The translations under genes were made by a program, and so were the position numbers. A DNA stretch of 64,000 bases, from NCBI GenBank assembly GCA_002441305.1, contig DJVT01000009.1, positions 12,839 through 76,838 on the forward strand, read 5' to 3'. This document shows positions 10,594 to 57,496 of this stretch, one piece after another (the first letter of the stretch is position 1; the number at the start of each line of letters is the position of its first letter). Source of the DNA: Candidatus Omnitrophica bacterium UBA6249. GTDB taxonomy: Bacteria; Omnitrophota; Gorgyraeia; Gygaellales; Profunditerraquicolaceae. The notes below the pieces were generated by a model, which saw only the letters and a program-made list of their open reading frames with translations, was not told where the DNA came from and did no database searches.

Positions 10594-11200
10594 ACGCAGG
10601 CGCGGCATGAAGGGCAAGGGTTTTACCCTGCTTGAACTTATTATCAGCGGAGCGATAATCGTCCTGGTGTCGGTTACCGTATATTCCGTCTTCTCCGGTG
10701 GTATCGCGGTCTGGAAAAAGGCCTATCTTGCCCGGAATCAGGGGCACAAGTTGAGGCTGGCCATCGATAAGATGAGTGTGGAGGTAAGGAATTCTTTCCG
10801 GTTTTCTTCCATACCTTTCGAAGGCACAGAAGACTCTGTTTCTTTTCCTTCTGTCTGCGAAGGGAACGTAAGCAGGGTAAGCTATTTTCTGAATGAAGAT
10901 AAGGTTTTTTGCCGCGCGGTGGAGAGTTATGCGCAGGTTTTTAAAAAGGATGAGCAGGGGAGCGTCTATGCCATTTTGTCCCCGGTGGCGGAGTTGAAGT
11001 TCAGCTATTGTTATCTTGATAACGCCAGCGGGGAATACAAATGGAAGGACGACTGGGTCAGGGATGAACAGGATACCCTGCCCCGGGCGTTGAGGGTAGA
11101 GTTGTTTTTCGGAGAGAAAGCCGGGGAAGAAGCCGATCTTGTCAAGACTATCTTTATCCCCATCGGCACGGGGGGACAGAAGAAGGAGCTTGTGCAATAA
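10583..11200 (+). CDS. Minor pseudopilin (GspJ-like)
   Basis: KGKGFTLLELIISGAIIV prepilin-type signal. ~200 aa, in the position between the I-like and K genes. An alternative ATG lies a few codons downstream. Confidence 0.45.
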   Translation: MSSKRRRGMKGKGFTLLELIISGAIIVLVSVTVYSVFSGGIAVWKKAYLARNQGHKLRLAIDKMSVEVRNSFRFSSIPFEGTEDSVSFPSVCEGNVSRVSYFLNEDKVFCRAVESYAQVFKKDEQGSVYAILSPVAELKFSYCYLDNASGEYKWKDDWVRDEQDTLPRALRVELFFGEKAGEEADLVKTIFIPIGTGGQKKELVQ

Positions 11201-12237
11201 TGCTTCTTACCGGGAAAACAAAGGCTTATTCTACCCGCGCAAGCATACTGATTATCGTATTGTGGATCCTGGCTTTTTTGACCATGCTTGTGGTGAATCT
11301 GGGCTTTATGGTCAGGTCGCAGCTGCAGTTTGCCAGGCACCTCCAGGACAGGATGAAGATGTATTATCTTGCGCGGGCCGGCATAGAAAGGGCGATTGTC
11401 GAATTGTACGAGGATGAAAGCCCGAGCTGCGATACGCTCAACGAGACCTGGGCGAATAATGGCGAGTTCTTCGATAGTTTCCAGTTGGGCGGGGGGTTCT
11501 TTACCGTCAGTTATCCCTCCGGGGGCAAAGACCAGGAGGACGAAGACGCTTTCGTGCTTTACGGGGCGATGGATGAAAGCGCAAGGATAGATATAAACAG
11601 CGCGCAGGAGGATATAATAGTTAATTTGCTTGAGCGCGTGGGCGGGATGGATAAGGAGGACGCCATAGATACGGCGCGCTGTATCGCAGATTGGCGCGAT
11701 AAAGATGTCGCGCTTTCCGTGGGAGGGGCGGAGAACGATTATTACCAGGGGCTTTCTTCGCCCTATGAGTGCAAAAACGGCAAATTCCAGGTGGCCGAAG
11801 AGTTGCTTTTGGTTAAAGGGATGAGCGAAGAGGTTTTTTCCAGGATCAAGGATGTGATTACAGTGTATGATACCGAAAAAGTCAATATCAATACCGCCGG
11901 GTTTAAATGCCTGTATGCCCTGGGGCTGGAAAGCGGGCTCTGCGAGGATATAATCGAATACAGGAACGGGGGAGACGGAGTCCCGGGCACGGAGGATGAC
12001 CCGGTTTTTAATTCGCCTTCGGAATTGATGAATATTGGTTCTTTATTCACGGAAGAAGCGGCACAGATAAACACCTTGGTCTCGCGGAATATACTTACGG
12101 TGAGGTCAGATACCTTCAGGATTATCTCTTTGGGCCAGATGAAGGATGACAGCGCCACGCGTTCCAGGCAGATCGTCTGCGTGCTCAAGCGCCAGAATAC
12201 CAAGGATCCTAAAATATTATATTGGCATGAAAATTGA
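11200..12237 (+). CDS. gspK: Minor pseudopilin GspK-like
   Basis: N-terminal hydrophobic helix ASILIIVLWILAFL without Glu+5, ~345 aa, a DESARIDINSA block and helix-hairpin-helix-like repeats typical of GspK. Confidence 0.65.
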   Translation: MLLTGKTKAYSTRASILIIVLWILAFLTMLVVNLGFMVRSQLQFARHLQDRMKMYYLARAGIERAIVELYEDESPSCDTLNETWANNGEFFDSFQLGGGFFTVSYPSGGKDQEDEDAFVLYGAMDESARIDINSAQEDIIVNLLERVGGMDKEDAIDTARCIADWRDKDVALSVGGAENDYYQGLSSPYECKNGKFQVAEELLLVKGMSEEVFSRIKDVITVYDTEKVNINTAGFKCLYALGLESGLCEDIIEYRNGGDGVPGTEDDPVFNSPSELMNIGSLFTEEAAQINTLVSRNILTVRSDTFRIISLGQMKDDSATRSRQIVCVLKRQNTKDPKILYWHEN

Positions 12238-15477: not shown

Positions 15478-16653
15478 GTGAAAAATATGAATAAAGACAA
15501 TATTGCTCAAAACAATCAGACTTTTTACGGATTGGGTATCGCTCCCAAGATACTGGATATTCTGGAGCGCATAAAATTCAAGACACCTACTCCTATACAG
15601 TTTAAAGCTATCCCGCTGGCCATATCCGGCAAGGATATCGTTGGAATAGCGCAGACTGGTACCGGGAAAACGCATTCGTTCCTTATTCCGATGGTTCAGC
15701 GCCTGGTGCAGAAGGAGGGGGTGGGCCTGGTGCTTGCGCCTACAAGGGAGCTGGCTATCCAGATACACGAAGCCTGCCAGCCGTTAGCCTGCGCTTTCGG
15801 CATGAAAACAGCCTGCCTTATCGGGGGAGCCCCTATGGAACCGCAGGTGCATGCTTTGCGTAAAGATCCCCGCATGGTAATTGCCACTCCGGGCAGGCTG
15901 ATCGACCATATGTCGCAGTGGAATTTCATTCCGGATAATGTGGTAATGCTTGTGCTCGATGAGGCGGACCGTATGCTCGATATGGGGTTTGCCCCGCAGA
16001 TAGACAAGATACTGCGTTTTCTCCCCCGGGACAGGCAAACTATGCTTTTTTCGGCGACTATGCCCAAGGAAATCATGAATATCGCCTCGCGCCATATGAA
16101 GCTTCCTTTAAGCGTGGAGATAGCCCCGTCGGGTACCACCGCGGAAAAGGTGACGCAGGAATTGTTCATCTTAAAGAAGGAAGCCAAACCGCGCTTGCTT
16201 AAACAGCTGCTTTCGCAGTACCACGGTTCGGTGCTCCTTTTTTCGCGCACCAAGTATAACGCCAGGAAGATTGTCAGGTCTATACGCGAGATGGGGCATT
16301 CCGTTTCCGAGATCCATTCGAACCGTTCTCTCGTCCAGCGTAAAGATGCCCTCGAAGGTTTCCGGTCGGGTAAATACAGGATCCTGGTCGCTACGGACAT
16401 AGCCTCGCGCGGCATAGACGTAACCGGGATAGAATTGGTGCTCAACTACGACCTTCCGGAAGACGCGGATAATTATGTGCACCGTATAGGCAGGACAGCC
16501 CGAGCGGGCCATAAAGGACATGCTATCTCTTTCGCCACTCCCGATCAGGAAAGGGATGTGCGGGAAATAGAAAAACTCATTAAGGCCAACCTTCCGGTTT
16601 CCAAACATTCCGATATCACATTAGACAAATTCTCTAAAAAACGGCAGAGATAA
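15478..16653 (+). CDS. DEAD-box ATP-dependent RNA helicase
   Basis: Q motif, AQTGTGKT, DEAD, SAT and HRIGRTARAG. The last codons overlap a solo repeat arm. Confidence 0.9.
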   Translation: MKNMNKDNIAQNNQTFYGLGIAPKILDILERIKFKTPTPIQFKAIPLAISGKDIVGIAQTGTGKTHSFLIPMVQRLVQKEGVGLVLAPTRELAIQIHEACQPLACAFGMKTACLIGGAPMEPQVHALRKDPRMVIATPGRLIDHMSQWNFIPDNVVMLVLDEADRMLDMGFAPQIDKILRFLPRDRQTMLFSATMPKEIMNIASRHMKLPLSVEIAPSGTTAEKVTQELFILKKEAKPRLLKQLLSQYHGSVLLFSRTKYNARKIVRSIREMGHSVSEIHSNRSLVQRKDALEGFRSGKYRILVATDIASRGIDVTGIELVLNYDLPEDADNYVHRIGRTARAGHKGHAISFATPDQERDVREIEKLIKANLPVSKHSDITLDKFSKKRQR

Positions 16654-16700
16654 TTCTTTTCTAACCCTCTGAATATGAATACCTTGGATAAACTGTCTAC
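16647..16700 (+). repeat. Solo right arm of the two-box repeat (contains the MFS start codon)
   Basis: Inner GAGATAATTCTTTTCTAAC at 16647..16665, a 17-nt linker, then outer-like CTTGGATAAACTGTCTAC ending at 16700. No matching left arm is seen upstream. Confidence 0.6.
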
Positions 16701-17916
16701 AAATAAGCGGGCGGCGTTCCAGTTGATTTTTCTTTTCGGGCTGGTCAGCCTCTTCGGGGATATGGTTTATGAAGGGGCGCGCAGCGTAAACGGGCCGTAC
16801 CTGAAAATACTCGGGGCCAACGCCGCGGCGGTAGGGGTGGCGGCAGGGATCGCCGAATTCCTCGGTTATGCCATCCGTCTTTTCTCGGGCTATTTCGCCG
16901 ACAGGACAAAGGCTTACTGGTTTTTTACTTTTCTCGGTTACGGGCTCTTGGTCAGCGTGCCTTTGCTTGCCTTGGCCGGCATCTGGCAGGTGGCTGTGGT
17001 TTTTATTATCGTTGAGAGGATGGGGAAGGCCATGCGCAGCCCGGCCAAGGATACCATACTTTCCCAGGCTACGAAACAGGTAGGGACGGGATTCGGATTT
17101 GCCATAGCCGAAGTGCTTGATCAGATAGGGGCGATTGCCGGGCCGTTGGTTTTCAGCCTGCTTTTTCTCGCTATCGGTTCGGGAAGCGGAGCGCTGCGGG
17201 ATTACCAGCATGGTTATTCTTTGCTCTGGATCCCTCTTTTTCTGGTGATTGCCTGTGTTTTTCTTGCCTACCGGCGCCTCCCGGACCCGGAGTCACTGGA
17301 GGCCTCTTCGGAAAGAAAAGGCCTGGCTACCGATAAGCTGGGCAGGGTTTTCTGGATATACACTTTTTTTACCTTTGTAACTACTCTTGGTTTCGCCAAT
17401 TTTGCCCTGGTAGGGTATCATCTTAAAGCCAGGCATATATTGAGCGATGCGCAGATACCGCTTTTTTACGCGCTGGCTATGGGGGTGGATGCCGTTGCGG
17501 CCTTAATTATCGGCAAGGCCTATGATATATTCAAGATAAGGCACAATAACGAAAAAGCCGGTTTAGTCACTTTGCTGGTTATTCCCGTGTTTTCCCTGGT
17601 TATCCCGGTCCTGGTGTTTTCCTCGGGTCTTATTACAGTGTTGTGCGGGGTGGTCGTTTGGGGAGTGGTCATGGGCGCCCATGAGACAATCATGAAATCC
17701 GCTATCGCTGACTTGACCCCTCTGAAGAAACGGGGGACCGGTTACGGGATATTCAATACCGCTTATGGCCTGGCTATCTTTGCCGGGAGCGCCGTTTGCG
17801 GCCTGCTCTATGAACATTCCATATTGTCGGTGATTATCCTCAGCGTGCTTGTCGAACTGGCGGCTTTGCCGGTATTCTTGATTTTGAGAAAAGAGGCTTT
17901 GACAGATACAGCCTGA
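16675..17916 (+). CDS. MFS transporter
   Basis: 413 aa with ~12 predicted TM helices. The first ~9 codons (MNTLDKLST) lie inside a repeat arm. Confidence 0.7.
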   Translation: MNTLDKLSTNKRAAFQLIFLFGLVSLFGDMVYEGARSVNGPYLKILGANAAAVGVAAGIAEFLGYAIRLFSGYFADRTKAYWFFTFLGYGLLVSVPLLALAGIWQVAVVFIIVERMGKAMRSPAKDTILSQATKQVGTGFGFAIAEVLDQIGAIAGPLVFSLLFLAIGSGSGALRDYQHGYSLLWIPLFLVIACVFLAYRRLPDPESLEASSERKGLATDKLGRVFWIYTFFTFVTTLGFANFALVGYHLKARHILSDAQIPLFYALAMGVDAVAALIIGKAYDIFKIRHNNEKAGLVTLLVIPVFSLVIPVLVFSSGLITVLCGVVVWGVVMGAHETIMKSAIADLTPLKKRGTGYGIFNTAYGLAIFAGSAVCGLLYEHSILSVIILSVLVELAALPVFLILRKEALTDTA

Positions 17917-17954
17917 TATGTTAAATTATTTGAATTAATACACCATCGGAGAGC

Positions 17955-18365
17955 ATGCCTTTAATCAGATTCGGGGTTTCTATAGAAAAAGACCTATTAG
18001 CCAAATTCGACCGCTTGCTGAAGCAAAGGAAATATACCAGCCGGTCGGAGGCCTTTCGTGACCTTATCCGCAATGAGCTGATCTGTGAGCAGTGGTCGGG
18101 GAACCAGGCGGTCGCGGGGGCGGTTACCCTGCTTTATAACCATCATAAGCGGGAGCTGGTGAACAGGCTCATGGATATCCAGCATAACTTCGGCGATATC
18201 ATAATCTCTTCCCAGCACGTACACCTGGACCATGATAATTGCTTAGAGGTAATTACGGTAAAGGGTTCCCCCCGGCAGGCGCAGAAACTTGCGCATACCC
18301 TGAAATCGGTAAAAGGAGTAAAGCATGGCACTCTGAGCATGTCGGCCACGGGGAAAGGCGTGTAA
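17955..18365 (+). CDS. nikR: Nickel-responsive regulator NikR
   Basis: N-terminal ribbon-helix-helix (RFGVSIEKDLLAKFD) plus a C-terminal ACT-like metal-binding domain with His-rich HHKRE...H...H. Confidence 0.75.
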   Translation: MPLIRFGVSIEKDLLAKFDRLLKQRKYTSRSEAFRDLIRNELICEQWSGNQAVAGAVTLLYNHHKRELVNRLMDIQHNFGDIIISSQHVHLDHDNCLEVITVKGSPRQAQKLAHTLKSVKGVKHGTLSMSATGKGV

Positions 18366-18462
18366 TTTATTTTTTTCTCCACCGGTAACACGAAATAATT
18401 ATTAATAACACTATTTCCCGGCGCATGATGTTTTCCGGCCGGGCGCGCAAACAGGAGGAAGG

Positions 18463-19146
18463 ATGCATATTCCAGACGGATACTTAGGCCCGGAGACCTG
18501 TGGTTTTTTCTATCTCGTCATGTTTCCCTTATGGACTGCCGCTTCGCGTATCGTTAAGAAGACGCTTAGCGCCAGGAAGATCCCTTTTTTGGCGGTGGGG
18601 GCGGCATTCAGTTTCGTGATCATGATGCTTAATGTGCCTATACCCGGGGGGACTACCGGGCATGCCGTGGGAGGGGCGCTCGTAGCCATACTGGTCGGCC
18701 CCTGGGCGGCATGTATCGCCATCAGCGTAGCCCTGGTTATCCAGGCCCTGCTGTTTGGGGACGGAGGGATTACCGCGATAGGGGCTAATTGTTTTATCAT
18801 GGCCTTTCTACTTCCTTTTTCCGGTTATTATATTTACAGGCTGATAAGCGGGAAATCCGCATTAACCTCTGCAAGGAGGGTGTTTGCCGCCGGTATAGCC
18901 GGTTACGCGGCGATAAATATCGCCGCTGCGACAGCGGGGTTTGTTTTCGGCATCCAGCCCCTATTGCACAAATCCGCAAGCGGCCTGGCGCTTTACTGCC
19001 CGTATGGGCTGAATGTAGCCTTGCCCGTCATGCTGGGAGAGCATCTTCTTGTTTTCGGATGGATAGAGGCTTTGGTGACCGCGGCCGTAGTCGCATACCT
19101 GCAGAAGCATGAACCGGAATTGCTCGCGGAAGGGGGGCAGGCATAA
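18463..19146 (+). CDS. cbiM: ECF transporter substrate-capture component CbiM/NikM
   Basis: Hallmark N-terminus MHIPDGYL; ~7 TM. Confidence 0.85.
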   Translation: MHIPDGYLGPETCGFFYLVMFPLWTAASRIVKKTLSARKIPFLAVGAAFSFVIMMLNVPIPGGTTGHAVGGALVAILVGPWAACIAISVALVIQALLFGDGGITAIGANCFIMAFLLPFSGYYIYRLISGKSALTSARRVFAAGIAGYAAINIAAATAGFVFGIQPLLHKSASGLALYCPYGLNVALPVMLGEHLLVFGWIEALVTAAVVAYLQKHEPELLAEGGQA

Positions 19147-19478
19147 TGAAGACGATTAGCAAGTTTTGGCTCTTGATCGCCGTATTGGTTTTGCTTTCTC
19201 CTTTAGGCCTGTTCCTGCCTGACTATTTCAAGGCGGGTTCCGCCTGGGGGGAATGGGGAACCGAAGAGATGCCCGGCTTAGTCGGATATGTGCCGGCCGG
19301 GCTGGCAAGACTTTCGGCTGCCTGGAACGCCCCTGTGCCGGATTACGCCTTTAGGGGGCAGGAGGGGGCTTCTTTGTTTGTCTTGAGCCTGGAGTATATT
19401 TTTTCCGCGCTGTTGGGTATTGCTGCCTGCGCGGGAGTTGTTTTTATGATGGCGAAATTATTTGGCAGGAAACAATAA
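19146..19478 (+). CDS. CbiN/NikN-like small membrane component (PDGLE-type)
   Basis: 110 aa with N- and C-terminal TM helices. ATGA-type overlap with cbiM. Family call tentative. Confidence 0.45.
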   Translation: MKTISKFWLLIAVLVLLSPLGLFLPDYFKAGSAWGEWGTEEMPGLVGYVPAGLARLSAAWNAPVPDYAFRGQEGASLFVLSLEYIFSALLGIAACAGVVFMMAKLFGRKQ

Positions 19479-19498
19479 CTTTTTAAGGCGGGAGAGAT

Positions 19499-20464
19499 AT
19501 GGATATATTGACCGGCGGGGCAGGGTTTATCGGGAGTTGCTTCCTTGCCAAGCTTAACAGCAAGGGGATAGATGATATTATTGTAGTGGATAACCTCAAG
19601 GAGGGGGCAAATAAAAGCCGCAACCTCCTGGGCAAGCATTTCCGGGATTATATCCCCAAGGAAAAGTTCCTGGCTTACCTGGAATCTAACCGTTTCCCCA
19701 AGCCCGGGCATATCATCCATATGGGAGCCTGCAGTTCCACGATGGTTTCTGACCGGGACTATCTGATGAGCAACAACTATGAATATTCCCGCAGGGTGAG
19801 CAGCTGGGCTTTCGAGCGCGCTGTTCCTTTTATCTATGCCTCCAGCGCGGCAACCTATGGAGATGGCGGGTTCGGCTATGACGACAGCGACGAGAACACC
19901 CTGAAACTCAAACCGCTTAACCTGTACGGCCTCTCCAAGCACATATTTGACCTCTGGCTGCTCAAGAACAGGCGCAGCAGCATGGCGGCCGGCCTGAAAT
20001 TCTTCAATGTCTTCGGCCCGAATGAATACCATAAAGGCGAGATGATGAGCGTTGTCTGCCGCTGTTTCGACCAGCTTAAAAGCGGTCAGCCGATGCGCCT
20101 TTTCAAATCATATCTCCCCGAGTACCCGGACGGGGAGCAGAAGAGGGACTTTGTGTACATAAAGGATGTGACGGAGGTGATGTTTTATTTCTACGAGCAT
20201 CCCGAGGCATGCGGAATCTACAATCTTGGCACGGGCGTGGCGCGCAGCTGGAATGATCTGGCTAAAGCGATGTTTTCCGCCCTGAAGATGAAGCCGAAGA
20301 TAGAATACATAGAAATGCCCGAGAAGATACGCGGCAAATACCAGTATTTTACCCAGGCGGATATGAAAAAACTGCGTTCCTGCGGCTGCCGGCACGAGTT
20401 TATGACCCTGGAACAGGCGGTTAAAGACTATTCTTCCTACCTAAGCTCCAAATCCTATATATAA
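19499..20464 (+). CDS. hldD: ADP-L-glycero-D-manno-heptose 6-epimerase
   Basis: TGGAGFIGS...IIVVDNLKEG N-terminus and YGLSK, resembling E. coli HldD/RfaD along its length. Confidence 0.8.
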   Translation: MDILTGGAGFIGSCFLAKLNSKGIDDIIVVDNLKEGANKSRNLLGKHFRDYIPKEKFLAYLESNRFPKPGHIIHMGACSSTMVSDRDYLMSNNYEYSRRVSSWAFERAVPFIYASSAATYGDGGFGYDDSDENTLKLKPLNLYGLSKHIFDLWLLKNRRSSMAAGLKFFNVFGPNEYHKGEMMSVVCRCFDQLKSGQPMRLFKSYLPEYPDGEQKRDFVYIKDVTEVMFYFYEHPEACGIYNLGTGVARSWNDLAKAMFSALKMKPKIEYIEMPEKIRGKYQYFTQADMKKLRSCGCRHEFMTLEQAVKDYSSYLSSKSYI

Positions 20465-20518
20465 GGTAAAGTTCCCCTGTTTTGCCCCGCGCGCACTGTT
20501 TTTGCCCCATTATGGAGC

Positions 20519-20547
20519 TTGACATAAGGGGGTTTTCTTGTTATAAG
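20519..20547 (+). promoter_or_regulatory. Sigma70-like promoter upstream of gcvT
   Basis: TTGACA (20519..20524), 17-nt spacer, TATAAG (20542..20547), about 60 nt upstream of ATG 20608. Confidence 0.45.
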
Positions 20548-20607
20548 TATAAGTCAACCCTGTAATAAGACACGCATTTTTCATTCTACCGGGATAAAAA
20601 CCAAGAA

Positions 20608-21717
20608 ATGGAAGAAAATTCGGTTCTGCTCAAGACGCCTCTTCTCCGCCAACATGAAAAGCTGGGCGCTAAGATGTCCCCTTTTGGGGGCTGGCTTATG
20701 CCTATCCAGTACAGCGGCATAATTGAGGAGCATAATTGGACGCGCAAGAACGTCGGCCTGTTCGATATCTGCCATATGGGCGAGTTTGCCCTGCGCATGG
20801 ACCCGGAAAAGGGCAATCTCGATACTCTGGTTACTATTTCCCTTAAGCGTATGCCTTTATTCTCCTGCCGTTATGGTTTTATGCTCGATGAGAAGGGGAG
20901 AGTTATCGACGACCTGATTATCTACAGGATAGACCGCGAACATTGGATGATCGTAGTAAATGCCGCCACTACGCAAGGTGATTTTTCTTATCTCCGCAGC
21001 CGGCTTGAAGGCGCCGGTTCCTTTGAGGACATTTCTGCTTCTATGGGTAAACTTGACCTGCAGGGGCCGCTTTCCGCAGAGGTGCTGTCGGTCTTGGCCG
21101 GGCCCGGGATCAGGAAGCTGAAATACTACACTTTCGGATATTTCGACCTGCTGGGTGAGAGGATAATTATCAGCCGTACGGGTTACACCGGGGAACTGGG
21201 GTATGAACTTTATATGCCTGCAAGCAAGGTCGCCCTTTTATGGGACAGACTTCTTGAGGATGACAGGGTAAAGCCTGTAGGCCTGGGCGCCCGCGATACT
21301 CTGCGTCTGGAGATGTGCTATAGTCTTTACGGCCAGGATATCAACAGGAATACCACTCCTGTTGCGGCGGGACTGGGTAATTTTATCGATTGGGACAAGG
21401 AGTTTACGGGCAGGCAGGCGCTCCTGGAGGAGAAGAATTCGGGAAGCGGGATGAGGATGATATACTTTATGGCGCAATCTCGCCGCTGCCCAAGGCATAA
21501 TTACCGGATAAAATACGCAGGCAGGGATGTGGGCGCGGTGACCAGCGGTTCTTTTTCGCCCAGCCTCGGCTGCGGGATCGGCATGGGCTATGCGGATAGG
21601 GAGATTGCCCCGGGGGAGACCGTGGCCCTCGGCGACGGCTCGGTTTCCATAGATGCGGAAGTTACGCTTAAACCTTTTTACAAAGACGGCAGCGCGAAAT
21701 CAGGAGAGGCAAAATGA
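20608..21717 (+). CDS. gcvT: Glycine cleavage system T protein (aminomethyltransferase)
   Basis: KTPL..HEKLGAKM and FDICHMGEF blocks. First gene of the gcvT-H-PA-PB string. Confidence 0.9.
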   Translation: MEENSVLLKTPLLRQHEKLGAKMSPFGGWLMPIQYSGIIEEHNWTRKNVGLFDICHMGEFALRMDPEKGNLDTLVTISLKRMPLFSCRYGFMLDEKGRVIDDLIIYRIDREHWMIVVNAATTQGDFSYLRSRLEGAGSFEDISASMGKLDLQGPLSAEVLSVLAGPGIRKLKYYTFGYFDLLGERIIISRTGYTGELGYELYMPASKVALLWDRLLEDDRVKPVGLGARDTLRLEMCYSLYGQDINRNTTPVAAGLGNFIDWDKEFTGRQALLEEKNSGSGMRMIYFMAQSRRCPRHNYRIKYAGRDVGAVTSGSFSPSLGCGIGMGYADREIAPGETVALGDGSVSIDAEVTLKPFYKDGSAKSGEAK

Positions 21718-22103
21718 ATGTACCGGAAGATCTTTTGTACACCAAGGACCACGAATGGGCCAGGATAGAAGGAGATAATGCGGTTATCGGGATAACCGAT
21801 TTCGCCCAGGATTCACTCGGGGATATTACTTTTATAGACCTTCCCAAGCAGGGGGCAGAATTAAAGCAGTCCGAATGGTGCGCTACCGTTGAGTCGGTAA
21901 AAGCGGCTTCGGATGTATACGCTCCTTTATCCGGCCAGGTGGTTAAGGTAAACAGCGAACTGGCGGAGCACCCGGAACTGGTGAATAAATCGGCCTATGA
22001 TAAAGGATGGTTTGCGGTAATCAAGATTTCCGATATGAGCCAGAAGGGCAAGCTTATGAGCCCGGCCCAGTATAAAGAATATACGGAAGGGTTGTCCAAG
22101 TGA
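21714..22103 (+). CDS. gcvH: Glycine cleavage system H protein
   Basis: 129 aa with lipoyl-lysine motif VESVKAASD. Confidence 0.9.
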   Translation: MNVPEDLLYTKDHEWARIEGDNAVIGITDFAQDSLGDITFIDLPKQGAELKQSEWCATVESVKAASDVYAPLSGQVVKVNSELAEHPELVNKSAYDKGWFAVIKISDMSQKGKLMSPAQYKEYTEGLSK

Positions 22104-24888: not shown

Positions 24889-24893
24889 GGCTC

Positions 24894-25655
24894 ATGAAGA
24901 ATTTCAGGCTTATCCGTTCTATCCCCCAAAACGCGCAATACAATATGTCCTTCGATGAGAATATGTTTTTCCGTTATGCAGAGGACGGTATCCCGTCATT
25001 CCGCGTGTACGGATGGGACGGGCCGGCTTTTACTTATGGGGCCGGGCAGCATCCTGAAGGGCAGCTTGATCTCGAGAGGTGTTCGCGCGACGGGGTCCGG
25101 GTCGCAAAGAGGATCACCGGCGGTGGCGTGTTGTTCCACCATCGCGAGATTACTTATAGCCTTGTCTGTTCCAAGGAGGATATAGGAGAGGACGAGAGGT
25201 CGCTTGTTTCTTACAGGCAGGTCTGCGCCTTTTTGATAGAATTCTACAAATCTCTCGGTCTGGAGCCGCGTTTTGCGCTTGAGGCCGAAGGCTTCCGTGA
25301 CAAGTCGCTTCCGCACCCTTTGTGCAGCGCATCGCACGAAAAATACGATATTGTCATCGGCAGAAGGAAGATAGGCGGCAATGCGCAGAAGCGCAGGAGA
25401 AGAGTGGTATTTCAGCATGGTTCTATACCTGTAGCAATAGATTGGTCAATTCCTTCCAGGTACGTGTTGGATATGCCGGAGGGAATCTCTTCAGGAGCTA
25501 CTTCCCTGGAGGAGGAATTAAAAAGCGTTCCGGAAAGCCGGGAGCTTGAGCGCCTGCTTATAGATTCCTTTGCTGCAGCTTACGGAGTTGATTTTCTTAA
25601 AGAGGGCGAAGTGGAAGGCGAGAGGAATGTTTGTTTTGTAACTCAAGGAATATGA
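24894..25655 (+). CDS. Lipoate-protein ligase / octanoyltransferase family protein (LplA/LipM-like)
   Basis: BPL_LplA_LipB-type catalytic domain (RITGGGVLFHH..., RKIGGNAQKR). Sits between gcvP and lipA. The last codons lie inside a solo repeat arm. Confidence 0.65.
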   Translation: MKNFRLIRSIPQNAQYNMSFDENMFFRYAEDGIPSFRVYGWDGPAFTYGAGQHPEGQLDLERCSRDGVRVAKRITGGGVLFHHREITYSLVCSKEDIGEDERSLVSYRQVCAFLIEFYKSLGLEPRFALEAEGFRDKSLPHPLCSASHEKYDIVIGRRKIGGNAQKRRRRVVFQHGSIPVAIDWSIPSRYVLDMPEGISSGATSLEEELKSVPESRELERLLIDSFAAAYGVDFLKEGEVEGERNVCFVTQGI

Positions 25656-25677
25656 AGAAGTTGAATAAACTGTCTAC
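25624..25677 (+). repeat. Solo right arm of the two-box repeat (spans the lipoyl-ligase-like/lipA junction)
   Basis: Inner GGAATGTTTGTTTTGTAAC at 25624..25642, a 17-nt linker, then outer-like GTTGAATAAACTGTCTAC ending at 25677. No matching left arm is seen upstream. Confidence 0.6.
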
Positions 25678-26539
25678 AAAACCGGAGTGGTTGAAGAAGA
25701 AGATTTCGCTGGGAGGGTGCGCCCAGGTAAAGGGGATGCTTAAGGATTTGCGCCTGCATACCGTATGCGAAGAAGCGCTTTGCCCGAATATGGGGGAGTG
25801 TTTCGCCAGGCGCCAGGCCTCTTTCCTTATACTCGGGGATATCTGCACGCGTTCGTGCCGTTTCTGCGGCGTAAAGAAAGGCAGCCCTCTTCCCGTAGAC
25901 GGCGGCGAGCCGGAGCGCCTGGCCGAGGCCGTGCGCAGGCTCGGCCTGTCCCATGTGGTTATTACCAGTGTTACGCGCGACGATCTCCCGGACGGAGGCG
26001 CCGGGGTATTCGCCGGGACTGTTTCCTTGCTGCGCGCTGTATCGCCGGGGGTTTGCGTGGAGACGCTTATCCCGGATTTCAATGCGGATGAATGTGCCTT
26101 GCGCGTATTGGCCGCCGCATCCCCGGATATTATCGCCCATAACGTGGAGACCGTGCCCGCCCTTTACCGGAAAGTAAGGCCGAACGGGGCCCTTTACGCC
26201 AGATCTCTCGGTCTGCTGCGTTCCTTAAAAAAGATCGCTCCCCATATACCGCTCAAGTCCGGCTTGATGCTTGGTTTGGGTGAAAACAAGGAAGAGGTTC
26301 TTTCCGTATTCGATGACCTGGTTTCCGCGGGGTGCTCCTTTTTGAGTATCGGGCAATATCTTGCCCCCAGCGGCAGCCATGTTCCTGTGTCCGAATATAT
26401 CCATCCGGACGAGTTCGAGGAGTACGGGAAAGAGGCTATGGCGCGGGGTTTTGTCTATGTAAAAAGCGGACCCTATGTGCGCAGTTCCTACAACGCCTCC
26501 GATTACCGTAAGGCGCTTGAAGCGGCCGGGTGCGTATAA
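25652..26539 (+). CDS. lipA: Lipoyl synthase
   Basis: KPEWLKKK, CEEALCPNMGEC and radical-SAM CTRSCRFC motifs. ATG 25652 overlaps the upstream stop (ATGA). The listed TTG at 25631 is less likely. Confidence 0.9.
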   Translation: MKKLNKLSTKPEWLKKKISLGGCAQVKGMLKDLRLHTVCEEALCPNMGECFARRQASFLILGDICTRSCRFCGVKKGSPLPVDGGEPERLAEAVRRLGLSHVVITSVTRDDLPDGGAGVFAGTVSLLRAVSPGVCVETLIPDFNADECALRVLAAASPDIIAHNVETVPALYRKVRPNGALYARSLGLLRSLKKIAPHIPLKSGLMLGLGENKEEVLSVFDDLVSAGCSFLSIGQYLAPSGSHVPVSEYIHPDEFEEYGKEAMARGFVYVKSGPYVRSSYNASDYRKALEAAGCV

Positions 26540-26555
26540 TTTTAAGGGAGGATAA

Positions 26556-37375: not shown

Positions 37376-37954
37376 ATGAAAATAGGCGTTATCGGCGGGA
37401 CGTTTAACCCCGTACATATAGGCCATCTGATACTTGCGGAAGAGGCAAGGGAAAAACTGGGGCTGGATAAGGTAATCCTTATCCCCACGGCTATGCCTCC
37501 GCATAAAGATGCCTCCGGGATCGCTCCCGCGGAAGACCGGCTTAAAATGCTTAAGCTGTCCGTAAAGGGGAATAAATTCTTCTCCGTTTCGGATATGGAG
37601 ATCAGGCGCCGGGGTCGTTCTTATACAATCGACACGCTGAGGGAGTTGAAACGCAGGTTTGCCCGCGATGAGATATATTTTATTATCGGGTCGGATCTGT
37701 TAAAGTACCTGAATGAGTGGAAAGACCTGGGGCAGATACTTGAGATGGTCAAGTTCGTCGCTGCGACGCGCCCGGGGTACCCTCTTGAGCAGATACCGGA
37801 TTGCATAGATACTATACCTATCCGAGCGGTGGATATTTCGGGTTTTGAGGTAAGAGAGTGTGTGCTTAAGGGCAGGTCGTTCCGTTACCTGGTACCCGAA
37901 GCAGTTTTTAACTACATAACCAAAAACAAACTGTACAGTAGACAGTTTACGTAA
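37376..37954 (+). CDS. nadD: Nicotinate-nucleotide adenylyltransferase
   Basis: GGTFNPVHIGH motif. ATG 37376 is preferred over the listed TTG 37367. The last 5 codons and the stop lie in the repeat outer box. Confidence 0.85.
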   Translation: MKIGVIGGTFNPVHIGHLILAEEAREKLGLDKVILIPTAMPPHKDASGIAPAEDRLKMLKLSVKGNKFFSVSDMEIRRRGRSYTIDTLRELKRRFARDEIYFIIGSDLLKYLNEWKDLGQILEMVKFVAATRPGYPLEQIPDCIDTIPIRAVDISGFEVRECVLKGRSFRYLVPEAVFNYITKNKLYSRQFT

Positions 37955-38060
37955 CTCTTTGATAATAATATTGTTACAAAACAAATATTCCCGGAACCTA
38001 CAAGGGGGTGTATTTCTTTTGTAACTATTGTATTTACATAATGTTATATAAACTGTCTAC
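37938..38060. repeat. Repeat unit A: empty two-box inverted-repeat element (123 bp palindrome-like)
   Basis: L arm: outer GTAGACAGTTTACGTAAC at 37938..37955, inner GTTACAAAACAAATATTCC at 37973..37991. A ~14-nt spacer follows. R arm: inner GGTGTATTTCTTTTGTAAC at 38007..38025, outer TTACATAA[TGTTATATAA]ACTGTCTAC at 38034..38060. Confidence 0.85.
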
Positions 38061-43622: not shown

Positions 43623-44315
43623 ATGACCATGCCGTCACATGCGCGCAGGCACCAGTTGCAGCAATCGTTGGTATATCATGCATTCAGCAGAAGCAGCGGG
43701 CGCAGGGAGATTTTTCATAACTCCCGGGACTTCGCATACTTCAAGAAATTAATCAAGGATTATACAGATAAATTTGGGATCAGTGTGTATCATTGGGTGA
43801 TCATGCCGAATCATTACCATCTTGTTCTTGAGCTTGATGTTCCTGAATCGATCTCCGGTTTTATGGCAGGATTGCACCGGGCGTATAGCCATTATTACTG
43901 CAGGAGATACGATACGGTGGGATTCTTGTGGCAGGGGAGATTCAAATTACAGCCGGTGCAGAAAGAGGCGTATTTGAAGAATTGCGGCAGGTATGTGGAA
44001 AGGAATCCGGTGCGTTCCGGGTTCGTTAAAGAGGCCTGTGAATATAACTATGGCAGCGCGCGATTCTATTGTTTGGGAGAAGAGGACGGGATAACAAAAA
44101 TGAGCCCTTATTTCGATGAATTCGGGAATAATATCAGGGCCAGGCAGGTGGCCTATAAAGAGTTCTTAAGCGTCCTTGACCGGGGGGATGAAGATCGTTT
44201 TTCCGGTGCGGGTATTATTTGCGGCGATAAGGTTTTTATCGGGAAACTGGTAAAAATGAACGGGCATTATTTTCCGAGAAGGAGCGGAAGAAGAAGGCTT
44301 TCTGGAGAGAGTTAA
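43623..44315 (+). CDS. REP-associated tyrosine transposase (RAYT; IS200-like Y1/HUH transposase family)
   Basis: HUH motif in MPNHYHLVL, WQGRF block, and the catalytic-Tyr context RYVERNPVR. AAAGGAGG RBS precedes the start. Confidence 0.8.
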   Translation: MTMPSHARRHQLQQSLVYHAFSRSSGRREIFHNSRDFAYFKKLIKDYTDKFGISVYHWVIMPNHYHLVLELDVPESISGFMAGLHRAYSHYYCRRYDTVGFLWQGRFKLQPVQKEAYLKNCGRYVERNPVRSGFVKEACEYNYGSARFYCLGEEDGITKMSPYFDEFGNNIRARQVAYKEFLSVLDRGDEDRFSGAGIICGDKVFIGKLVKMNGHYFPRRSGRRRLSGES

Positions 44316-44626: not shown

Positions 44627-44700
44627 CCGGAGTATTTCTTTTACAACTTTATATAAATCAACGGATTACATAAACTGTCTACGGAGCTGCGGAGCAGGGG

Positions 44701-45564: not shown

Positions 45565-46406
45565 GAAAAAACATACTTGTTTTAGGAAAAGGTTTTATCG
45601 GAGAAAGGATAGGCAGGGAGCTTGGCTGCCGGGTCTCCGGCGCAGTGATAAATTCTTTTAGCGATGCGGATAGGCTGCTCGGCCGCTACAGGCCTGAGAT
45701 AGTGATTAACTGCATCGGCTCCAGCGGAAGGCGCAATGTCGATGACTGCGAGGAGGATAAAGAGGCGACTTTGCTTGCCAACAGCTTTATTCCGTTGATG
45801 CTTGCCGAGGCCTGCCTGCGCCGGGGGATCAAGCTCGTGCATATCAGTACCGGCTGCATCTTCAATTTCGATTACAGAAAAGATAAGCCTATCAAAGAAG
45901 GGGAAAGGAATTATTTTCTCAAGCTGTTCTACAGCCGCAGCAAGATTTATTCCGAGGCCGCTCTCGAGGCCCTTTCTGCAAAAGCGGGCATACTTATCCT
46001 CAGGATCAGGATACCCTTGCTCGATGAAAGCCACCCCAGGAATATTCTGGACAAGCTTGTTAAATACGAAAAGATTGTCGATGTCCCAAACTCGGTGACC
46101 TATCTGCCTGATTTTATCAGGGCGTTAAAACATTTGATTGGGGTTGGCGCAGTAGGGGTGTATAATGTAGTGAATAAAGGCGGCCTGCGTTATTCCGAGC
46201 TGATGAAGGTTTACCGGAAGTATCTGCCCGGGCCGGATTTTAAGTTTGTCTCTGTGCGCAAACTTCCTTTAACCAGGACAAACCTGCTTTTGTCTGTCGC
46301 CAAGCTTGAGAGAACGGGTTTTAAGGTCAGAGATATCCATTCCGTTCTTGACGAATGCCTCAAGCATTATGTAGACAGTTTACGTAACCCTGTTAAACAT
46401 AAGTAA
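45561..46406 (+). CDS. RmlD-like NAD(P)-dependent sugar-nucleotide reductase (divergent dTDP-4-dehydrorhamnose reductase-like)
   Basis: Rossmann LVLGKGFIG and YxxxK as YSRSK. GTG 45561 overlaps the rfbA stop (GTGA). The listed ORF start 45447 overlaps rfbA. The last 11 codons run through repeat arm C. Confidence 0.5.
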   Translation: MRKNILVLGKGFIGERIGRELGCRVSGAVINSFSDADRLLGRYRPEIVINCIGSSGRRNVDDCEEDKEATLLANSFIPLMLAEACLRRGIKLVHISTGCIFNFDYRKDKPIKEGERNYFLKLFYSRSKIYSEAALEALSAKAGILILRIRIPLLDESHPRNILDKLVKYEKIVDVPNSVTYLPDFIRALKHLIGVGAVGVYNVVNKGGLRYSELMKVYRKYLPGPDFKFVSVRKLPLTRTNLLLSVAKLERTGFKVRDIHSVLDECLKHYVDSLRNPVKHK

Positions 46407-47483
46407 TTACAAAAGAAATATTATGGGGAAGAAAAGACACAGCAGCGTTTTAGTTACCGGCGGGGCCGGATTTATCGGCAGCGCCTTTGTCCGGCTTCTG
46501 GCGGAGCAGGGAGTTCCCGTTGCCGTCTTGGACAAGCTTACTTATTCGGGGGATCTGAAGCGCCTTGAAGGTACAGGCGGCAGGTTCAGGTTTTACAAAA
46601 CCGATATCTGTAATAAGAGGGCAGCAGGTGCGGTCTTTGCCAGCGAAAGGCCAGACACAGTGGTGCATTTTGCCGCAGAGAGCCATGTTGACCGCAGTAT
46701 CAAGGACGCTGCGCCATTTATCGAGACCAATATCAAGGGCACTCAGGTGCTTCTCGATGTAAGCCGTAAATACAGCGTAAACAGGTTTGTGTTTATTTCC
46801 AGCGATGAGGTCTATGGAGAGATTGCCGACGGTAAGTTTAAAGAGGACTTTCCCCTTAAACCGAACAGCCCTTATGCCGCATCCAAGGCTGCGGCGGATC
46901 TCCTGGTGCAGGCTTATATCAGGACGAATAAATTTCCCGCGATAATCGTAAGGCCGTCAAATACCTATGGCCCATGGCAATACCCGGAAAAGCTGATCCC
47001 GCTTGCCATACTCAGGATACTCGGGAAGGAAAAAGTTCCGGTTTACGGGAAAGGCAAGAATATACGCGAATGGCTGTATATCGACGATTGCGTGCGCGGT
47101 ATCGCGGAAATTATGGACAAAGGCAGGCTCGGGCAGATCTATAATCTGGGCGGTTCATGCGAAAGCAGGAATATAGATACGGTCAAACTTCTCTTGAGGC
47201 TGCTCGGGGAAAAGGCGGACAGGTTCAAATTTGTGAAAGACCGGCCGGGCCATGATATAAGATACAGCTTAAACTCCGGGAAGGCGGCGAAAGAACTCGG
47301 CTGGAGGCCTAAGGTAAAACTTGCCGAAGGGCTTAAATCGACCGTAGCCTGGTCGCTCGGCCACAGGGATTGGCTGAAGAGTAAGCTGGCGGACGTAAAC
47401 AAACTGTACGGTAAATAGTGCTGCGATAGGGAATGTTTCTTTTGTAACTTTATAATATCAAGCTGGTTACATAAACTGTCTAC
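46371..47483. repeat. Repeat unit C: rfbB bracketed by the two-box inverted arms
   Basis: L outer GTAGACAGTTTACGTAAC at 46371..46388; L inner TTACAAAAGAAATATT at 46407..46422, abutting ATG 46423. R inner GGAATGTTTCTTTTGTAAC at 47430..47448; R outer GTTACATAAACTGTCTAC at 47466..47483. Confidence 0.75.
46423..47418 (+). CDS. rfbB: dTDP-glucose 4,6-dehydratase
   Basis: TGGAGFIGS, HFAAESHVDRS, SSDEVYG and YAASKAAAD. Confidence 0.9.
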   Translation: MGKKRHSSVLVTGGAGFIGSAFVRLLAEQGVPVAVLDKLTYSGDLKRLEGTGGRFRFYKTDICNKRAAGAVFASERPDTVVHFAAESHVDRSIKDAAPFIETNIKGTQVLLDVSRKYSVNRFVFISSDEVYGEIADGKFKEDFPLKPNSPYAASKAAADLLVQAYIRTNKFPAIIVRPSNTYGPWQYPEKLIPLAILRILGKEKVPVYGKGKNIREWLYIDDCVRGIAEIMDKGRLGQIYNLGGSCESRNIDTVKLLLRLLGEKADRFKFVKDRPGHDIRYSLNSGKAAKELGWRPKVKLAEGLKSTVAWSLGHRDWLKSKLADVNKLYGK

Positions 47484-48552: not shown

Positions 48553-49204
48553 TAGTTACAAAACAATTATTCCATGATGCTGCGTTAGATTATTCCTCTT
48601 TCTGCGTCTATTGACGTTAGAAAGGAGAGAATATGAGTAAAAGAATAGCTTCTGTGGAGGTTGTGGCGGGTAAGATTATATTACTAAGAGGGAAAAGGGT
48701 AATGTTGGATTCTGACTTAGCGGAGCTATATGGGGTAAAAACATTTAACTTTAACAAAGCCGTTAAACGCAATATAAGGCGTTTCCCGGAAGATTTTATG
48801 TTTCAACTTACCACGGAGGAATATAGGAACTTGATATTCCAAAATGGAAGGTCAAGATGGGGCGGCAGGCGATATGCTCCTTATGTTTTTACTGAGCAAG
48901 GCGTAGCCATGTTATCCAGCGTGCTCAAATCGAAGCGGGCTATTGAAGTTAACATAGCAATAATGCGTGCTTTCGTGAAGTTACGGGAGTTATTATTGAC
49001 ACATAAAGAATTAGCAAAAAAGATTGAGGAGTTAGAGCGTAAGTACCAACTGCATGAAACGGACATTCAGACAATATTTGAGGTAATTAAAAAACTTCTT
49101 GAGCCTCCGCAGAAACCTCCTAAACCGCGATTCGATATAAATTAATGATACGAATAGATTTTTTATAATTTCATAGGAATGATAAGGTTACGTAAACTGT
49201 CTAC
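48520..49204. repeat. Repeat unit D: ORF6N-domain gene bracketed by the two-box inverted arms
   Basis: L outer ATAGACAGTGTACGTAAC at 48520..48537; L inner GTTACAAAACAATTATTCC at 48555..48573. R inner (degenerate) GAATAGATTTTTTATAAT at 49152..49169; R outer GTTACGTAAACTGTCTAC at 49187..49204. Confidence 0.75.
48633..49145 (+). CDS. ORF6N-domain (KilA-N-related DNA-binding) protein
   Basis: [18 protein letters not shown]...[21 protein letters not shown]...[18 protein letters not shown] is the typical ORF6N pattern. C-terminal coiled coil. Confidence 0.7.
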
Positions 49205-49271: not shown

Positions 49272-50315
49272 ATGAGATATAGAAACATACTGATTACCGG
49301 AGGGGCCGGGTTCGCGGGGAGCAACCTGGCTGTGTATTTTAAAGAGAGGTATCCTAAAACAGAAGTCTTTTCCCTGGATAACCTTGTCCGAAGGGGCAGT
49401 GAATTCAACCTTCCCAGGCTAAAGAAGGCCGGGGTTAAGTTTATCCGGGGAGACGTCAGGCGGCCAAAAGACCTTGATTTTATACCCGGTATCGACCTGG
49501 TGATAGAATGCTCTGCCGAGCCCTCGGTTTTGGCAGGATATGAAAAGCCCGCTTATATTATCGATACCAACTTGAACGGTACGGTAAACTGCCTTGAGTT
49601 TTGCCGCAGACGCAAAGCGGATATTATCTTTATCTCCACCAGCAGGGTATACCCTTACGACAGGATAAACGCGATCGGGCGCAGAGAGAAGGCAACCCGG
49701 TTTGAATGGAAGGATTTTTCCGGAGTTGGAACGGGTTTTCCGCTCACCGGCCTGCGCACATTGTATGGGGCGACCAAGCTTTCCTCGGAACTTATCCTCC
49801 AGGAGTATGCGGCGGCATACGGGTTTAAATCGGTAGTCAACCGTTGCGGGGTGCTGGCCGGGCCGTGGCAGTTCGGCAAAGTTGATCAGGGGGTATTTAC
49901 ATACTGGATGCTGGCGCACTATTTCAAAAGGCCGCTTAAATATATCGGCTTTGGCGGCGAGGGCAAGCAGGTGCGCGACCTCCTGCACGTAGATGACCTG
50001 TGCAGCCTGGTGGATATGCAGGCGGGTATCCTGGATAAAATAAACGGCAATACGTATAATGTCGGCGGGGCGGGCGAGGTGAACCTTTCTCTCCTTGAGG
50101 CCACCGGATTATGCCGCAAGATCACCGGCAACAAGATCAAAATCGGCAGCGATAAACGCAACCGCCCGGGAGATATCGCAATCTACATTACGGATAATCG
50201 TGAAGTTACCCGGCAGCTAAAGTGGAAGCCTCGCAAGCAGCCTGTTGCGATCCTGAAAGATATCTTCGGCTGGATCAGGAGGCATGAGCCGATGCTGAAG
50301 AAGCTGATAATGTAG
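49272..50315 (+). CDS. NAD-dependent epimerase/dehydratase (CDP-paratose/tyvelose 2-epimerase-like)
   Basis: ITGGAGFAGSNL, YGATK and SLDNLVRRGS blocks. The TAG stop is the TAG of the repeat head GTAG. Confidence 0.65.
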   Translation: MRYRNILITGGAGFAGSNLAVYFKERYPKTEVFSLDNLVRRGSEFNLPRLKKAGVKFIRGDVRRPKDLDFIPGIDLVIECSAEPSVLAGYEKPAYIIDTNLNGTVNCLEFCRRRKADIIFISTSRVYPYDRINAIGRREKATRFEWKDFSGVGTGFPLTGLRTLYGATKLSSELILQEYAAAYGFKSVVNRCGVLAGPWQFGKVDQGVFTYWMLAHYFKRPLKYIGFGGEGKQVRDLLHVDDLCSLVDMQAGILDKINGNTYNVGGAGEVNLSLLEATGLCRKITGNKIKIGSDKRNRPGDIAIYITDNREVTRQLKWKPRKQPVAILKDIFGWIRRHEPMLKKLIM

Positions 50316-50638
50316 ACAGTTTATGTAACTCTATGATAATATAGCAGTTACAAGATAAATATTACCGGTTTAAACACAGCAGGAGGCTATCGGGGAGGGC
50401 GCATGAGCGACGAAGGCGGGTTCCTGGTGAAGTTTGACAACAAAAAATCGCTTCGTTGTTACAAGATTGAATTCGATTACGATGAATACCGGTATGTGAT
50501 TAACGGCAAGGAAAAACACAAGCTTCCCCCGCGTGTAAAAGAGATCAATATCAAGGTCGAAGGTTAGCTGCCGGCGTATCAGGAGGAGTAATTCTTTTGT
50601 AACCTATGAGGCCTTAGATAGTTACGTAAACTGTCTAC
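50312..50638. repeat. Repeat unit E: 54-codon ORF bracketed by the two-box inverted arms
   Basis: L outer GTAGACAGTTTATGTAAC at 50312..50329; L inner GTTACAAGATAAATATTACC at 50347..50366. R inner GGAGTAATTCTTTTGTAAC at 50585..50603; R outer GTTACGTAAACTGTCTAC at 50621..50638. Confidence 0.75.
50403..50567 (+). CDS. Small hypothetical protein (54 aa) inside repeat unit E
   Basis: Translated by hand: MSDEGGFLVKFDNKKSLRCYKIEFDYDEYRYVINGKEKHKLPPRVKEINIKVEG. AGGAGG/GGGAGGG lie upstream. It is not in the ORF track and I recognise no homology. Confidence 0.3.
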   Translation: MSDEGGFLVKFDNKKSLRCYKIEFDYDEYRYVINGKEKHKLPPRVKEINIKVEG

Positions 50639-54144: not shown

Positions 54145-54157
54145 TTTTTTGTTCGAT

Positions 54158-56487: not shown

Positions 56488-56496
56488 AAGGAAGAT

Positions 56497-57489: not shown

Positions 57490-57496
57490 CTTCTCC

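Follow-up and report, generated by a model that had tools for sequence, protein, structure and literature searches.

Two genes in a 64,000-nt stretch of DNA from Candidatus Omnitrophica bacterium UBA6249 (NCBI assembly GCA_002441305.1, contig DJVT01000009.1, positions 12,839 to 76,838; hereafter the window) appear to take their start codons from copies of a short repeat. One encodes a transporter of the major facilitator superfamily (MFS), the other lipoyl synthase (LipA). The repeat unit, referred to below as an arm, is 54 nt long and consists of box 1, GGAATATTTCTTTTGTAAC (19 nt), 17 variable nucleotides, and box 2, GTTACRTAAACTGTCTAC (18 nt). The arms at these two genes stand alone and are called solo arms. 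At a third site, inverted arms flank a gene named RAYT-A, which encodes a transposase probably of the type associated with repetitive extragenic palindromes (REPs). Repeat counts given below refer to the window. The genes and features at the three sites are:

15478..16653, plus strand: DEAD-box helicase gene, terminating within the first 7 nt of solo arm 1
16647..16700, plus strand: solo arm 1 (19+17+18 nt), with the helicase TAA at 16651-16653, the MFS ATG at 16675 and a TTG at 16684
16675..17916, plus strand: MFS transporter gene, first 9 codons (MNTLDKLST) encoded by the arm
24894..25655, plus strand: lipoyl(octanoyl) transferase gene (LipB/LplA family), C-terminus encoded by the arm
25624..25677, plus strand: solo arm 2, with the last 10 codons of the lipB-like gene, its TGA (25653-25655) and the lipA ATG at 25652 (ATGA overlap)
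25652..26539, plus strand: lipoyl synthase gene lipA, first 9 codons (MKKLNKLST) encoded by the arm
43623..44315, plus strand: RAYT-A, an IS200-like Y1 (HUH) transposase, probably of the REP-associated type, likely start at the second ATG (43629)

The ATG of the MFS gene (16675) and that of lipA (25652) both sit in the 17-nt spacer of their arm, and both read in frame through the peptide K-L-S-T into the gene. To determine whether these N-termini are additions, they were compared with those of orthologs. In 115 of 120 MFS orthologs, exactly 10 residues precede the first transmembrane helix, LIFLFGLVSLFGD (MNNQKKTAFQ-LIFLFGLVSLFGD); in the window, where the N-terminus reads MNTLDKLSTNKRAAFQ-, the distance is 16 residues, and the 6-residue extension corresponds exactly to residues encoded by the arm. 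LipA starts 2-3 residues before a conserved P-x-W-L(-N-K-K) in 77 of 114 orthologs and 10 residues before it in the window (MKKLNKLSTK-PEWL), an 8-residue extension relative to most orthologs that is again exactly the arm-encoded part. The window LipA is 100% identical to a protein from an NCBI Candidatus Omnitrophota metagenome-assembled genome (MAG). In both genes, no in-frame ATG, GTG or TTG codon precedes the conserved residues except those of the arm, an ATG (position -26 relative to the arm end) and a TTG (position -17). An earlier note on this DNA had proposed that both genes draw their start and first codons from the repeat, and the shorter ortholog N-termini, together with the position of the available start codons, bear this out. 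The ATG, rather than the TTG three codons further on, is probably the codon used; the N-terminal peptides predicted for initiation in the arm are MKKLNKLSTKPEWLK for LipA and (M)NTLDKLSTNK(R) for the MFS protein.

Orthologous arms in related genomes precede intact native start codons. In L029 an arm lies 23 nt upstream of a native lipA start (ATG ATT AAA CCC; MIKPAW). At the MFS gene, the right arm ends 11 nt before the native ATG in L030 (MNNQKK...) and 4 nt before it in L124 (MNNKKR...). Between the loops of the L030 arm (TCATTGAATATGATAAG) and the window MFS arm (CCTCTGAATATGAATAC), 11 of 17 positions agree, including AATATGA, so the two arms are orthologous and the loop ATG is older than its use as a start; in L030 this ATG is present and is not used as the start. 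In the window, both spacers and both native ATGs are missing, and the arm end (..CTAC-A) abuts the second or third ancestral codon. Since the orthologous arms of relatives precede intact native starts, the fusions are best explained as secondary losses of spacer and ATG and not as insertions of a module.

Capture of a start codon from an arm has recurred at lipA. On a neighbor-joining tree of 115 LipA orthologs, arm-derived N-termini fall into at least five separate clades: the window with L002; P0006 with P0028; P0035; P0103; and P0105. P0059 and P0061 are possibly a further clade of this kind. Arms at the lipB/lipA junction were confirmed in the DNA of L003, L004 and L031, and arms are found at orthologous sites even where LipA identity is only 60-75%. 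LipA of L124 is fused to its arm in another reading frame (MVYIDCLQR-PEWL), while P0031 (MTVYMKPV) runs through the third frame and then directly into the native start. We conclude that the start codon of lipA has been captured from an arm at least five times in separate lineages, with two reading frames involved, that the arm has been at the lipB/lipA junction since early in the history of the group, and that the start has moved into it repeatedly. The second frame yields a different peptide (MVYIDCLQR), and therefore the arm peptide is not the selected feature. In L003, a distant RAYT homolog (31% identity; 10964-11587, minus strand) lies directly downstream of the arm-fused lipA, on the opposite strand.

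The solo arms belong to a larger family. A repeat search clusters both solo sites (16647-16700 and 25624-25677) with ten other copies at 37.9-50.6 kb. When the window was searched with an nhmmer profile of 38 non-identical arms, the same 12 copies came up and nothing else (16647-16701, E 1.3e-7, and 25624-25678, E 8.6e-11, for the solo arms). The 19+17+18 layout, which the earlier note had described for the solo sites and for the arms of the 38-51 kb cluster, holds in 12 of 12 copies. Box 2 has the 18-nt consensus GTTAC(A/G)TAAACTGTCTAC, and the 17-nt spacer is AT-rich and variable; the solo arms have TTGRAT where canonical arms have GTTACRT. The window contains exactly two occurrences of the 33-nt pattern common to the solo arms, GAATATGAA-N4-TTGRATAAACTGTCTACAAA (none expected from 100 shuffles), and the terminal 16-mer ATAAACTGTCTACAAA has 11 matches with up to three mismatches (0.47 expected). 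Read from the outer end, an arm begins GTAGACAG...; the tetranucleotide GTAG (arm end ..CTAC) is present in 11 of 12 window arms and in all Omnitrophota loci, the remaining window arm having ATAG. A GTAG head is typical of REPs (PMC3733652).

Ten of the 12 arms lie within 13 kb, next to the RAYT gene. Seven arms are on the plus strand and five on the minus strand; the long open reading frames (ORFs) are all on the plus strand. The stop codon of the upstream gene is overlapped by 7 of the 12 arms. The TAG of GTAGAC serves as the stop of tyrS and of an epimerase gene, the TAA of CGTAAC as that of a nadD-like gene, and other in-arm stop codons terminate the rfbD-like, epimerase-1, lipB and helicase genes. 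The arms of the cluster are:

37938..37991, minus strand: left arm of a doublet, containing the TAA stop (37952-37954) of the nadD-like gene
38007..38060, plus strand: right arm of the doublet, rpe start 9 nt further; orthologous doublets in L007 and L026
43507..43560, minus strand: arm 5' of RAYT-A, the TAG of GTAGAC being the tyrS stop; 18-nt terminal box invariant in seven genomes
44629..44682, plus strand: arm 3' of the RAYT-A and SemiSWEET pair, rfbA start 18 nt further
46371..46424, minus strand: arm between the rfbD-like and rfbB-like genes
47430..47483, plus strand: arm upstream of an epimerase gene, 4 nt from its start and in frame; orthologous arm in L014
48520..48573, minus strand: arm lying across the final codons and the stop of the epimerase gene 47488-48552
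49151..49204, plus strand: arm after the ORF6N gene (48633-49145)
50312..50365, minus strand: arm whose TAG (50313-50315) is the stop of the epimerase gene 49272-50315
50585..50638, plus strand: arm with the nadE start 15 nt further

RAYT-A matches the Pfam family Y1_Tnp of IS200-like transposases (E 4e-15). In the PDB its sequence matches one entry only, E. coli TnpA-REP (4ER8), and both the HUH motif (HYH) and the tyrosine of Y-x-x-x-NPV are aligned there. The IS200 model NF033573 gives 22 bits against a cut-off of 55, and membership in IS200/IS605 was rejected on this score, on the presence of a single syntenic gene, and on long inverted repeats in place of asymmetric subterminal hairpins. 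Two ATG codons 6 nt apart (43623 and 43629) are available in the RAYT ORF; AAGGAGG abuts the first, and a public homolog, P0241 (228 aa), and the relatives start at the second.

The inverted arms that flank the gene (43507-43560, minus, and 44629-44682, plus) are part of a conserved order, tyrS-[arm]-RAYT-[arm]-SemiSWEET-rfbA, which is also found in L012, L014, L018, L023, L027 and L028 (seven genomes with the window). Across these genomes, RAYT identity is ~65% versus ~80% for TyrS. The 18-nt terminal box GTAGACAGTTTACGTAAC (window 43507-43524) at the tyrS/RAYT junction is invariant in all seven, although the codons next to it show synonymous changes; the leader that separates the arm from the RAYT start is well conserved too. 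All named RAYT-A homologs are from Omnitrophota. RAYT-A is a single-locus gene and is inherited vertically.

To follow the repeat beyond these genomes, 185,579 species-representative genomes were scanned for exact GTTACRTAAACTGTCTAC. The scan produced 23 loci, 19 of them in MAGs of ~13 Omnitrophota species and four chance hits elsewhere, and the full 54-nt layout was present at all Omnitrophota hits. The commonest form is a doublet, an inverted pair of arms ~13 nt apart and ~125 nt in total (with the ~13-nt spacer in L007, L008, L011, L013, L016, L021, L025 and L026). A literature search found no report of REPs in Omnitrophota.

A second arm family accompanies a second RAYT paralog. RAYT-B, likewise flanked by inverted arms of its own, lies between the DEAD-box helicase and MFS genes in L002 (GCA_030153525.1), the closest syntenic relative, and in the more distant L030 and L124. 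At this site the window has a solo right arm only, without RAYT-B. The arms of this family (var2, as opposed to the var1 arms described above) have the form AGAATTGTTTTGTAAC-N17-GTTAYATAAAGCGTCTT; they accompany RAYT-B in L002, L010, L029, L030 and L124 and are absent from the window. Their positions are:

L002: 111, 987, 4737/4853 and 10019
L010: 98
L029: 5312/5426
L030: 1453-1604 and 2487
L124: 49, 3793 and 11914

At lipA, the arm of L002 is var2 in both boxes, while the orthologous arm is var1 in six other genomes. The MFS arm of the window combines a var2-type loop with a var1 terminal box. These patterns hint that arm sequence may be kept matched to the resident RAYT. In L030 (GCA_028716965.1; 1440-1660), three tandem left arms precede RAYT-B, and two of them are nearly identical 66-nt units.

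Folding and signal searches were carried out on the arms. Ten single arms folded as single-stranded DNA were no more stable than shuffled sequences (z -1.9 to +0.8), and only a weak dyad, TTTTGTAAC/GTTACATAAA, was seen within a single arm; the classical REP stem-loop model was dropped because single arms are without significant structure. The doublet 37938-38060 forms a long hairpin (-43.4 kcal/mol, z -5.8). An Rfam scan of the whole window gave no family at the gathering score, and no direct repeat indicative of a target-site duplication was found around any of the five arm pairs in the window.

The search for sigma-70-like sites found none on the plus strand of either solo arm. Such sites were not enriched in the 37.5-51 kb cluster (22 versus 15.5 ± 4.3 expected). 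Both solo arms contain an antisense sigma-70-like site, TAGACA-N16-CATATT (16672-16699 and 25649-25676, minus strand), whose -10-like hexamer, CATATT, is the start-codon-bearing AATATG read on the other strand. Several minus-strand arms (37939, 50313) contain TAGACA-N16-GATAAT directed into downstream genes. A usable Shine-Dalgarno sequence is missing from both solo arms: no such sequence precedes the MFS ATG, and AAGGA is just 2 nt away from the ATG of lipA.

Several other classes of element were considered for the arms and set aside. A miniature transposable element derived from a DDE-type insertion sequence is unlikely, given the lack of target-site duplications and of any DDE transposase. 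An invertible promoter does not fit the commonest doublet, with only ~13 nt between arms. Integron attC sites and CRISPR do not fit either, as there is no integrase or cas gene, the spacing is irregular, arms are found on both strands, and single arms are unstructured.

We propose that the repeat forms the inverted-repeat arms of a RAYT-type system that is inherited vertically, and that at the MFS gene and at lipA an ATG carried by the arm was captured after loss of the native start; we put the probability of this reading at roughly 75%. The arms are retained at constant intergenic positions of tightly packed operons, either singly, in ~125-nt doublets, or on both sides of the transposase and a few other genes, and their ends routinely reach into neighboring coding sequences. 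A small deletion could then remove the spacer and the native ATG of the gene downstream. Such a deletion would be survivable only because the arm ATG lies in an open K-L-S-T frame that continues into the gene, and the pre-existing spacer ATG would become the start codon, adding 6 (MFS) or 8 (LipA) residues. At lipA, the ATGA overlap with the lipB stop may let translational coupling replace a ribosome-binding site. From the sequences compared we infer that deletion, rather than fresh insertion, made the fusions and that the added peptide is neutral.

Several observations weigh against this proposal. The best NCBIfam model for RAYT-A, NF047646 (REP_Tyr_transpos), scores 66.8 bits, below its curated cut-off of 80. 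With 1-2 exact 18-mers in each species representative, the arms appear to be low in copy number, and the lack of significant folding in single arms is unlike classical REPs. Deletion is the most parsimonious route, and independent re-insertion of an arm nearer the gene is possible; the lipA arm of L002 has evidently been swapped for an arm of another family. The partnership of RAYT and arm (putative transposition, binding and cleavage) is a functional prediction. The MFS ATG is without a Shine-Dalgarno sequence and 21 nt from the preceding stop, and the MFS junction is seen in this assembly only.

The earlier note had instead regarded the arm variant at the two genes as a portable cassette for translation initiation, and perhaps a promoter, placed ahead of genes by insertion and fused to them in frame. 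Two unrelated genes do use the same arm ATG in the same frame, lipA is arm-fused in several other Omnitrophota lineages, and the 9-mer GAATATGAA is shared in an otherwise variable spacer. The idea of a common variant stands insofar as 11 of 17 spacer positions, this 9-mer included, are shared between the MFS and lipA arms, a value at the top of the pairwise matrix; it is limited in that this value is tied with another pair and that the boxes of the lipA arm are closer to those of the canonical arm at 47430 (plus strand; 34 of 37 positions identical) than to those of the MFS arm (29 of 37). The intact native starts behind orthologous arms, 23 nt (L029), 11 nt (L030) and 4 nt (L124) away, speak against a portable module. 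So do the ten of 12 window arms that are not fused to a gene start in this manner, the five arms in opposite orientation, the seven over stop codons, the occurrence of the loop ATG in unfused arms and in opposite-orientation arms at gene 3' ends, and the fusion of LipA in a second frame with a different peptide. A promoter role is not supported, the sigma-70-like sites in the solo arms being antisense only, and neither is an initiation role, given the lack of a usable Shine-Dalgarno sequence. Further genes starting M-x-x-L-[DN]-K-L-S-T were sought and none were found: a metagenome scan with ATG-N9-RATAAACTGTCTAC gave 92 hits with one true arm, from the same population, so that the variant was not found outside this population, and in the six-frame translation of the window KLST heads a long ORF only at the two solo sites and at the 47430 arm, where it is in frame and followed by the gene's own ATG. 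We consider a portable cassette very improbable. It is also highly improbable that the extensions are artefacts of annotation, with translation starting downstream (TTG 16723 for MFS; TTG 25690 or ATG 25735 for LipA) and the arm serving only as a 5' leader. In-frame TTG and ATG codons do exist there, some LipA orthologs have been called from an internal MLKDL, and Di Nocera et al. (2013) hold many REPs 'inside' ORF 5' ends to be extragenic (PMC3733652). However, the residues between the arm and these codons (NKRAAFQ in MFS, including the KR before the first transmembrane helix, and KPEWLKKKISLGGCAQVKG of the LIAS_N region in LipA) are conserved among orthologs of 60-79% identity; because they are conserved at the protein level, this region is translated. 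A start at TTG 16723 would, moreover, delete the basic residues before the first transmembrane helix and shorten that helix.

That the repeat caused a chimeric join during assembly, so that the gene-arm fusions are unreal, is extremely improbable. An independent 10,191-nt assembly from the same population, L113, equals window 16698-26888 and breaks exactly inside the MFS arm; NCBI labels the corresponding MFS protein 'partial', and the MFS half of the check that the earlier note had asked of independent assemblies is thus left with the present assembly alone. For lipA the check succeeded: the arm and its junction are identical in L113 despite nearby single-nucleotide polymorphisms. The gene orders helicase-(RAYT)-MFS-nikR and lipB-lipA match those of L002, L030 and L124, and fusions of the same type occur in unrelated assemblies. 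A different emphasis, unlikely on balance, would make the arms primarily host cis-elements (protein-binding or RNA-processing sites) under selection, with the RAYT as a domesticated partner and start capture as incidental. The terminal box that stays invariant in seven genomes while flanking codons change synonymously is consistent with it, as are orthologously placed arms in species sharing only 60-75% LipA identity, the low copy number, the single syntenic RAYT locus, the terminal box that appears to follow the RAYT paralog, and the description of RAYTs as domesticated and vertically inherited (PMC5581495). Yet homogenisation or replacement driven by the RAYT could account for the conservation, Rfam gave no match, single arms have no structure, arms point in either direction, and some sites carry an arm in one relative and none in another. 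More speculatively, the arms may not be decaying mobile DNA but sites actively kept in register with the resident RAYT paralog, a domesticated HUH transposase that would rewrite or maintain a few fixed intergenic sites across the phylum by site-specific replacement or conversion, with host genes repeatedly borrowing start and stop codons. This possibility, to which we assign a low probability, is suggested by the invariance of the 18-nt terminal box across species at orthologous sites, by the replacement of the L002 lipA arm with a var2 (RAYT-B-type) arm, and by the MFS arm of the window: this arm, the ortholog of the right arm of RAYT-B in a window that lacks RAYT-B, joins a var2-type loop to a var1 (RAYT-A-type) terminal box.

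The proposed capture of arm-borne starts can be placed among known repeat systems. Like REP/REPIN-RAYT systems (Nunvar 2010; Bertels & Rainey 2011; Bertels 2017, PMC5581495), the system of the window comprises a Y1/HUH transposase, vertically inherited and confined to one locus, between inverted copies of a short repeat; the repeat starts with GTAG and is also found elsewhere in intergenic DNA; inverted doublets give one long hairpin, units are kept at orthologous sites, and the repeat co-varies with the RAYT paralog (var1 with RAYT-A, var2 with RAYT-B). Unlike a REP, which is an imperfect palindrome of 20-40 nt with a stem-loop, the window unit is 54 nt long, bipartite, and without a stable palindrome; REPs are dispersed in tens to hundreds of copies, whereas the arms, judged within the 64-kb window, appear few and locally clustered. 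Low copy number is a feature of RAYT groups 1 and 4 (PMC5581495). RAYT-like genes can be flanked by families of terminal inverted repeats (TIRs), and in TIRtrons/TIRYTs a RAYT-like gene is flanked by long TIRs instead of REP hairpins, with singles, dimers and clusters (PMC3733652), as here; several TIRs carry the motif GGGGWSAS, whereas the arm starts with GTAG and is unrelated in sequence. Compared by description, the TIRtron/TIRYT account appears to fit best, in a system that would work like REPIN/RAYT. The transposase of this system and that of IS200/IS605 elements have homologous Y1 HUH fold and motifs.

The coding use of repeats also has precedents. GTAG repeats often supply TAG stops and sit in ORF N-termini (Di Nocera, De Gregorio & Rocco 2013, PMC3733652). 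As in the palindromic elements (RPEs) of Rickettsia (cited in PMC3733652) and the QMITEs of Coxiella (PMC5896051), repeat DNA is coding and a short added peptide is tolerated. RPEs are inserted within ORFs, however, and QMITEs overlap only the 3' ends of functional genes (PMC5896051), whereas an arm supplies the start codon, and does so after loss of the native one, repeatedly at lipA and in two frames.

Some features of the cluster deserve separate mention. The arm 46371-46424 gives the rfbD-like gene 11 C-terminal codons and a stop and reaches, at its inner end, into the ATG (46423) of the rfbB-like gene, a third gene whose start touches an arm; in relatives the rfbD-like and rfbB-like genes overlap by ~26 nt, and in the window the arm is wedged in between. 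The ORF6N-domain gene (48633-49145) is flanked by a minus-strand and a plus-strand arm (48520-49204). At the corresponding site L012 has only one minus-strand arm and L018 has 84 nt and no arm, and for this reason the ORF6N gene and its right arm look like cargo gained between arms. An ORF of 54 codons at 50403-50567, between the arms 50312-50365 (minus) and 50585-50638 (plus), has no detected family. GC content falls from ~0.51 to 0.34-0.44 across the distal sugar-nucleotide/polysaccharide cluster (window 54000-64000), which is suggestive of a horizontally acquired segment.

Two features are of some interest: the repeated capture of a start codon at one gene in two frames and the unusually deep conservation of low-copy arms at orthologous sites. 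Together they provide an example, dated by comparison of relatives, of repeat DNA turning into bacterial coding sequence: a gene without a start of its own survives by means of an ATG in the adjacent transposase-associated repeat, and at lipA this has happened several independent times. On the practical side, the break of L113 inside the MFS arm and the 'partial' label of the MFS protein indicate that the arms break short-read assemblies and mislead the annotation of start codons in Omnitrophota MAGs. The analysis also places a RAYT-type repeat system on record for the uncultured, small-genome phylum Omnitrophota, where a small number of long-lived repeats is packed tightly between genes, and this bears on the debate as to whether REPIN/RAYT systems are parasites or domesticated partners of their hosts.

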